Shown one piece after another: positions 18,572-19,267 of a stretch of 64,000 nucleotides of DNA (position 1 is its first letter; the number at the start of each line of letters is the position of its first letter). The position numbers were made by a program, and so were the translations under genes. This DNA is from Escherichia phage Turkey3, in the sequence record PQ471515.1; one strand, 5' to 3'. A model generated the notes under the pieces. That model saw nothing but the letters and a program-made list of their open reading frames with translations. It was not told the DNA's origin and made no database searches.

Positions 18572-19267
18572 ATGGTTGAACAATTCAATTTTGGTGGTTA
18601 TGCTGGTGGTGAAGTTCGCAACATTTCTATTCCTTATGTAGTTGAAAAAGTTAATGGTGCAGAACGTACTTATGACCTAGCATCTCGTATGATGCAAGAC
18701 CGTATCATTTTCCTTGATACTGACTTCAATGACCAAATGGCACATATCATCAAGCAACAATTGGTGTGGTTGGATTCTCAGGGTTCGGAACCAATTACCT
18801 TCTACATTAGTTCTCCTGGTGGTTCAGTACACGCAGGTTTGGGTATCGCTGACATTGCTAAGTCTTGTGTATCTCCTATCCGTACAGTAGTAATGGGTTA
18901 TGCAGCATCAATGGGTTGCTATACTCAATCAGTTGTTGGTACTAAAGGTTTCCGTCTAGGTGGTAAGCGTTCTTACTTCATGTGCCACCAAGTAAGTTCC
19001 GGTACTCAGGGTCTGATTACCGATCAGAAGATTTCTTTGAAACACTCTGATGCATTGAACACACTATTGACGAAAGAAATTGCTGAAGCAGTTGGTGTAT
19101 CACACGAACAACTACTGAAAGATGCGGATCGTGACCTGTGGTTGAACGCTGAAGAAGCACTCGAATACGGTGAACATGGTTTCATTGATGGTATCATCCT
19201 CGGACCACGCAACGAAGAAGGTAAGTATCTCGTCAAACGTCGCGGTGGCGTTGAAGAGTGGGTCTAA
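18572..19267 (+). CDS. ClpP-family serine peptidase
   Basis: ISSPGGSVHAG, GYAASMG (catalytic Ser context), MCHQVSSG (His); good RBS AGAGGAAA. Confidence 0.8.
   Translation: MVEQFNFGGYAGGEVRNISIPYVVEKVNGAERTYDLASRMMQDRIIFLDTDFNDQMAHIIKQQLVWLDSQGSEPITFYISSPGGSVHAGLGIADIAKSCVSPIRTVVMGYAASMGCYTQSVVGTKGFRLGGKRSYFMCHQVSSGTQGLITDQKISLKHSDALNTLLTKEIAEAVGVSHEQLLKDADRDLWLNAEEALEYGEHGFIDGIILGPRNEEGKYLVKRRGGVEEWV

Follow-up and report, generated by a model that had tools for sequence, protein, structure and literature searches.

Does the ClpP-like peptidase encoded at this locus mature the phage head, as its database name says, or does it belong to a protein-degradation machine of the cellular type? In RefSeq and GenBank, clpP is labelled 'head maturation protease' in 121Q, PBECO4, RaK2, fHe-Yen9-04, vB_Ec-M-J, and other phages. 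The stretch of DNA analyzed here (the window, 64 kb) is 96-98% identical to eight Asteriusvirus jumbo coliphages (vB_Ec-M-J, WPEC5, Ecwhy_1, fEgEco12, EC.P1, and others) and ∼83% identical to 121Q, PBECO4, and phAPEC6; it comes from an Asteriusvirus jumbo coliphage of the 121Q/PBECO4 group.

The gene itself is already known: annotations have called it ClpP from the earliest genomes of the group onward, and published work has taken up the ClpP of jumbo phages. In particular, ClpP has been singled out as the non-virion peptidase most prominent in jumbo phages, with a suggested deployment against the host, ClpS and ClpA being mentioned separately from it (Iyer et al., 2021), and ClpA has been reported as conserved in Rak2-like phages (Attai et al., 2018). 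Our literature search found no experimental study on a phage-encoded ClpP. What is new here is an explicit case against the head-protease label, the evidence from an early-type promoter and from the late-promoter box, the near-perfect co-occurrence of three components, and a set of clade-specific ClpP features. The coordinates of all features are collected in Table 1.

Table 1. Features of the clpP locus and of the rest of the window, in window coordinates
Feature	Position	Strand	Remarks
clpP CDS	18572..19267	+	ATG start, 231 aa
Ser113 codon	18908-18910	+	within VVMGYAASMGCY
His139 codon	18986-18988	+	within FMCHQVSSG
Asp188 codon	19133-19135	+	within DADRDLW
Probable propeptide	clpP residues ~1-19		
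C-terminal tail	clpP residues ~212-231		specific to the clade
Sigma-70-type promoter of clpP	18510..18537	+	extended -10; TAGACA, 16 nt, TG-n-TATAAT (TGTGATATAAT)
RBS of clpP	18558..18563	+	AGAGGA, 8 nt 5' of the ATG; kept in phAPEC6 and vB_Ec-M-J
Terminator-like hairpin	19282..19309	+	GATGCC / GGCATC stem, then TTATTTCT (T-rich tail)
Small ORFs 3' of clpP	19322-19609, 19611-20057	+	95 and 148 aa; PHROGs 16159 and 16190
Second ClpP-like ORF	22200-22808	+	202 aa; promoter 22037-22064, TAGACA-N16-TGTGATATAAT as for clpP
HslV-like ORF	23155-23754	+	199 aa; PHROG 1040 'peptidase HslV family', 1.9e-22
Sir2-family protein	23987-24739	+	Pfam 1.3e-19
Two ~900-aa ORFs	35762-38458, 39075-41804	+	hypothetical in a relative
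Promoter family, likely early	3933, 10853, 13075, 18510, 22037, 27426, 47705, 59219; also 62845	+	(G/T)(G/A)GACA-N16/17-TGATATAAT

Family, fold, and divergence of the clpP product

The clpP product matches the Pfam CLP_protease family (PF00574) over profile positions 2-179 of 182 with 142.9 bits (E 1.3e-41), and with the curated cutoff at 20.2 bits this match is far above chance. More than 100 solved cellular ClpPs are matched over the full length (best E 3e-36) with 34-46% identity, the value for E. coli ClpP, whose reference sequence we confirmed by exact look-up, being 34%. Residues S113, H139, and D188 align to S97, H122, and D171 of E. coli ClpP, and this triad, which is shared with bacterial ClpP (MEROPS S14, PF00574), the core of ClpAP and ClpXP, is invariant both in a 20-sequence and in a 42-sequence alignment of phage and cellular proteins. 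The N-terminal axial-loop residues P21, V23, E25, E31, and R32 are kept relative to E. coli ClpP and are of the cellular type; P21, V23, E25, and R32 are invariant or near-invariant in the same two alignments.

The AlphaFold model of the phage protein has a pLDDT of 91 and a pTM of 0.83. Its top Foldseek matches were all cellular ClpPs, with rmsd of 1.2-2.0 Å and TM scores of 0.90-0.96 that span whole target chains, E. coli 3mt6 included. The head, the handle, and the N-terminal axial loops of bacterial ClpP are all present in the predicted fold. The model shows residues 1-11 as disordered, and the length of the N-terminal extension varies among orthologues, which would fit a cleaved propeptide.

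Judged from these comparisons, clpP encodes an intact, full-length ClpP-family serine peptidase. The first-pass annotation, which had placed such a peptidase here and had described the sequence contexts of the catalytic Ser and His as intact, is thus borne out: the ORF is placed exactly, the ClpP fold is predicted to be complete, GYAASMG contains Ser113, and MCHQV contains His139. The alignment of the Ser-His-Asp triad that it had proposed as a check gave the same answer, as no loss of a triad residue was seen across the 42 homologues.

The phage protein differs from bacterial ClpP in several respects besides being virus-encoded. On the NCBIfam models it scores 153.3 bits (TIGR00493, cutoff 308.6) and 156.4 bits (NF001368, cutoff 249) and does not reach the equivalog or subfamily cutoffs for orthodox bacterial ClpP (249-309 bits); by these scores, it represents a divergent ClpP subfamily and is no equivalog of cellular ClpP. 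The phage clade has HQVSSGTxG where the cellular proteins have HQP(L/S)GG, carries a 3-residue insertion (GxxGF), and ends in a conserved C-terminal tail of ∼20 aa that is ordered in the AlphaFold model. In addition, alignments against E. coli ClpP place a non-aromatic residue at the F82 position and Gly at the L114 position throughout the phage clade. In E. coli ClpP, F82 and L114 line the unfoldase docking pocket, and with these changes docking could be altered.

Gene neighborhood, head module, and transcription signals

The order of genes around clpP was compared in four genera (Asteriusvirus, RaK2, GAP32, and fHe-Yen9-04). It is kept as DNA ligase, metallophosphoesterase, small ORF, ClpP, two small ORFs, further ORFs, and dCMP deaminase. 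The two small ORFs directly 3' of clpP are found in all four genera examined, and a domain search detected no domain in either product. In GAP32, RaK2, and fHe-Yen9-04, clpP abuts the upstream gene and therefore reads as part of a DNA-metabolism transcription unit. It has no promoter of its own there; in this comparison, the dedicated clpP promoter is an Asteriusvirus feature.

The head module is located elsewhere. In phAPEC6 it is of the T4 type and comprises the portal (Portal_T4, 5e-112), the protease gp227c (Peptidase_S77, PF03420, 9.9e-21), the scaffold, and the capsid protein (Gp23, 1e-89). The same module is present in vB_Ec-M-J, where the S77 protease EcMJ_335 (8e-21) is at 203.4 kb and ClpP at 81.7 kb; in both genomes, clpP and the head module are ∼120 kb apart. 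Conservation of this module extends to 72 phage records. The Pfam search yielded no Peptidase_S77 match for the clpP product. The T4 gp21 prohead protease (Peptidase_S77) belongs to a family unrelated to phage ClpP, and its homologues, which stand beside portal, scaffold, and capsid as a separate and distant gene, perform head maturation in this lineage.

Some head maturation proteases are related to ClpP (NF045542; PHROG 94) and have the peptidase clan and the core fold in common with the phage protein. Unlike them, phage ClpP is encoded outside the head module, lacks a scaffold or capsid fusion, retains the N-terminal loops and the handle region of the cellular type, and occurs in a lineage whose heads are matured by an S77 protease. 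On NF045542 it scores 51.1 bits, below the cutoff of 120 and a third of what it reaches on the models for cellular ClpP. The PHROG 94 'head maturation protease' profile is matched with E 9.5e-44 over 207 of its 622 positions, and the cluster is broad. Membership in this shared cluster explains why pipelines name clpP a 'head maturation protease'. The true S77 protease bears a similar label, and the second ClpP-like gene of vB_Ec-M-J is also called 'head maturation protease'. On clpP, this label looks like a propagating annotation error: the protease that matures the head of this T4-related jumbo phage is not ClpP.

The clpP promoter belongs to a recurrent type. TAGACA-N16-TATAAT, in exactly this form, is present twice in the window (0.11 expected), and the looser form nnGACA-N16/17-TGATATAAT has eight plus-strand sites there, the clpP promoter among them. 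All sites of the family precede genes, and the -35 element is mostly GGGACA; these are likely to be early promoters of the phage. In the comparison with phAPEC6, the GACA of the -35 element, the GTGATATAAT block, and the leader are kept while the surrounding intergenic DNA has diverged. Similarly, the hairpin 3' of the clpP stop codon has kept its stem, the loop being variable. Such islands of conservation (promoter, leader, and hairpin stems) in diverged intergenic DNA indicate that these are functional elements, although the hairpin may merely attenuate transcription, because a conserved small ORF starts shortly after it.

Neither strand of the window contains the T4-type late-promoter box TATAAATA, against an expectation of 10.4 ± 3.3 copies. 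In two 50-kb structural regions of relatives, read against the feature tables, it occurs ten times, always in the sense orientation and 17-57 nt upstream of late genes, including 46 nt before the capsid gene and 48 nt before the scaffold gene. A gp55-like late sigma factor is encoded in the lineage. The sense-only placement upstream of late genes, combined with the absence from the window, indicates that the box acts as the late promoter here and has been purged elsewhere. The paper on fEgEco12 makes no mention of Clp, proteases, or promoters. The clpP promoter, being sigma-70-like and devoid of a late box, appears to be of the early type, from which we infer early timing in vivo.

Several claims made from the window alone stand after these comparisons. 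The 'family promoter' is at the exact position given in the first-pass annotation, as one of the eight plus-strand sites, and the ribosome-binding site it called good has the sequence and spacing listed in Table 1. The gene does lie among early and metabolic genes, in the block between ligase and dCMP deaminase, and not in a head-assembly operon, given the distance to the same-genus head module. T4-type prohead proteases, which had been set apart as having a different fold, are represented in the lineage by the separate S77 gene. The non-morphogenetic role that had been argued from context is supported by the location, the early-type promoter, and the lack of late boxes, the function itself being deduced from these.

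The clpP gene has the highest GC content among the 94 ORFs of the window (43.3%, z = 2.4), mainly owing to codon positions 1 and 2 (GC3 z = 1.1). Arginine is encoded solely by CGT and CGC, 92% of the glycine codons are GGT, and ATA, TTA, and AGA are absent; highly expressed genes typically show this codon pattern. We ruled out that the high GC stems from a recent host-to-phage transfer, given the 34% identity to E. coli ClpP and the nearest relatives, which are all phage proteins; such a transfer is also opposed by the GC excess being at codon positions 1 and 2.

Partner proteins and the likely role of phage ClpP

A 762-aa ClpA orthologue, EcMJ_316, is encoded by vB_Ec-M-J. It matches E. coli ClpA with E 5.6e-178 over residues 17-741 and scores 752 bits on TIGR02639. 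The Walker A and B motifs and the KYR and GYVG pore loops are kept in phage ClpA across five phage genera, where the tripeptide at the ClpP-docking position reads IGM, IGV, LGM, LGM, and IGF; in EcMJ_316, IGM stands at the IGL position of the cellular docking loop. In a comparison of this tripeptide with the ClpP pocket for covariation across genera, the ClpP of PA5oct turned out to be of another lineage. In four genera, clpA is a lone plus-strand gene amid minus-strand virion genes, and it has its own terminator and a sigma-70 promoter that is close to the consensus and contains the TGTGATATAAT block also found at clpP. No ClpX of Asteriusvirus was among the matches listed.

The third component is a ClpS-like protein of 181 aa, whose gene (252760-253305 in the vB_Ec-M-J record) comes after the phage IF3 gene; the promoter in front has the consensus form TTGACA-N17-TATAAT. 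The protein shares 37.6% identity with GAP32_314, for which the GenBank annotation gives a Pfam ClpS domain, and aligns to the core of E. coli ClpS with E 3e-5 in pairwise BLASTP. Taken alone, its sequence falls short of the Pfam ClpS model, and searching with E. coli ClpS failed to find it directly in Asteriusvirus, so that it was reached via the GAP32 homologue; the link to ClpS is drawn from the pairwise match and this transitive homology. Several of the N-degron-binding positions of E. coli ClpS appear changed in the phage protein (NDDYTPM to DDPTTSA).

ClpP at ≥60% identity is found in 69 phage records, compared with 70 for ClpA and 71 for the ClpS-like protein, and all are from the same genera. 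The clpA and ClpS-like genes are located outside the window and are known from the closest relatives (98% identical DNA). In EC.P1, ClpP is 100% identical to the protein of the window and ClpA is 100% identical to its vB_Ec-M-J counterpart; the genome from which the window comes therefore almost certainly encodes ClpP, ClpA, and the ClpS-like protein. Thus phage ClpP, like bacterial ClpP, has a ClpA-type unfoldase in the same genome, as seen in the closest relatives. Since ClpA and the ClpS-like protein accompany ClpP in one set of ∼70 phage genomes, these two are, on sequence grounds, more likely partners of ClpP than host ClpX or ClpA, the candidates named in the first-pass annotation, and phage ClpA would be the likely unfoldase.

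Clp genes of the cellular type, such as those of the Rak2 clade, are also carried by other jumbo phages (Atu_ph07, PA5oct, Lak phages, and phage G). Their ClpPs belong to other lineages, with 33-40% identity and without the insertion and the tail of the Rak2 clade. PA5oct encodes ClpA, ClpP, ClpS, and, additionally, ClpX.

From the family, catalytic residues, and fold of the protein, its distance from the head module, its promoter type, and its co-conservation with ClpA, we consider it probable that ClpP is the catalytic core of an early phage ATP-dependent Clp protease, which acts together with the phage's own ClpA on cytoplasmic targets. Host RNA polymerase with sigma-70 would transcribe clpP early from its extended -10 promoter. 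The protein would then shed its N-terminal propeptide and form the usual ClpP barrel. A hexamer of phage ClpA, rather than a host unfoldase, would dock onto this barrel by its IGM loop, unfold proteins, and pass them into the ClpP chamber, the substrates possibly being selected for ClpA by the ClpS-like adaptor. The likeliest targets would be host proteins, early phage proteins cleared in the course of the take-over, or misfolded products of the heavy load of phage protein. This reading has to contend with the scores below the NCBIfam equivalog cutoffs, the altered pocket residues, the missing clpP promoter in GAP32, RaK2, and fHe-Yen9-04, and the mass-spectrometric hints of particle association described below.

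Alternatively, phage ClpP could mainly use host ClpX and/or ClpA and so supplement or replace host ClpP, while phage ClpA would have a separate function, e.g., as a chaperone or a translocase in virion assembly. The conserved axial-loop residues, which in cellular ClpPs contact unfoldases, are consistent with this, as is the location of clpA between virion structural genes in four genera, and it has been suggested that phage ClpA or ClpX may help virion assembly (Iyer et al., 2021). However, ClpP and ClpA are found in essentially one genome set, and phage ClpA retains a ClpP-docking tripeptide, which would be superfluous for a pure chaperone. Moreover, the clpA promoter is of the early type, like that of clpP, and lacks a late box, and the clade-wide changes in the ClpP pocket oppose a simple fit of the IGF and IGL loops of the host unfoldases. 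We therefore regard the use of host unfoldases as unlikely.

A second alternative is a morphogenetic or virion-associated protease that processes inner-body or ejected proteins or clears the scaffold. It is favored by the PHROG 94 match and by the inner body that phAPEC6 capsids possess, and mass spectrometry offers two further hints. One peptide of the CBB orthologue (70% identity), covering 4.5% of the protein, was found in a virion preparation, and the ClpP of PA5oct is flagged as detected by virion mass spectrometry (ESI-MS/MS); hence, some association with particles is possible. However, the PA5oct protein is of a different lineage: it is 33% identical, lacks the clade insertion and tail, and has a 10-residue insertion of its own. 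The virion proteome of phAPEC6 (62 proteins) lacks the orthologue gp353c, which is 96% identical to the ClpP of the window, and includes the S77 protease gp227c, and the unexpected virion proteins named in the RaK2 paper are the S77 protease and SSB only, with no ClpP. Given also the dedicated S77 protease within the head module, the low NF045542 score, the lack of a late promoter in the entire window, and the location of clpP in a DNA-metabolism block, a morphogenetic role seems very unlikely.

Finally, interference with the host Clp system, by co-assembly with host ClpP into mixed rings or by drawing host unfoldases away from their normal substrates, would agree with the complete ClpP fold and its conserved ring-forming core, and with the clade-specific surface changes and the ordered C-terminal tail, but it is hardly credible for a protein that strictly keeps across the clade a triad unneeded in a decoy, has a co-conserved cognate ClpA, and shares merely 34% identity with E. 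coli ClpP.

The preferred reading, an early protease built from phage ClpP and phage ClpA, can be taken further. Rak2-like phages may possess a degradation machine that is insulated from the host (own ClpP, own ClpA, and own ClpS-like protein), is switched on early, and removes specific host proteins, e.g., defense or stress-response factors. Its docking interface would differ from that of the host in the IGM/LGM loops, the changed pocket residues, and the ordered ClpP tail, and the adaptor pocket would differ as well; we offer this extension tentatively, as a possibility that we find rather doubtful.

In either form, a whole clade of giant phages would keep a degradation machine of the cellular type apart from head assembly. 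Its substrates, if identified, would show what a virus gains from an unfoldase-protease pair of its own; possible gains are the clearance of host defenses, the timing of the phage's own programme, and the ability to handle a very large amount of protein. The system lends itself to experiments, as the host is E. coli, the cellular homologues are well understood, and an S113A trapping mutant is easily designed.

Other genes of the window and a split clpP record

Three peptidase-type genes lie within 5 kb: clpP, the second ClpP-like gene, and the HslV-like gene. The second ClpP-like protein is very divergent (Pfam CLP_protease, 3e-4; phrog_26024 'protease', 1.6e-69). Its hydrophobic N-terminal segment, which ends in FPASAG, reads like a signal peptide, and the protein may be an exported peptidase.

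The N-terminus of the HslV-like product (M-T-C-I-I-A-H-T-N-G...I-A-G-D) resembles those of Ntn-hydrolase proteases. It has no Pfam match, and its matches to HslV in PDB and NCBIfam are weak. No HslU-like partner was found; the 442-aa 'ATPase' EcMJ_295 was considered for this part and rejected, as it has no PDB or NCBIfam match and its AAA similarity is only sub-threshold. The two ORFs of ∼900 aa further downstream contain no AAA+ or other Pfam domain.

In a relative, the Sir2-family gene is followed by genes for a NUDIX hydrolase and a PhoH-like protein; the PhoH-like gp341c is present in the virion proteome of phAPEC6.

In MH494197.1 (phage CMSTMSU), a ClpP protein 100% identical to that of the window is matched in two pieces at 52672-53363, where two CDS are annotated. 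A frameshift in that record, or an error in its sequencing, probably accounts for the split.
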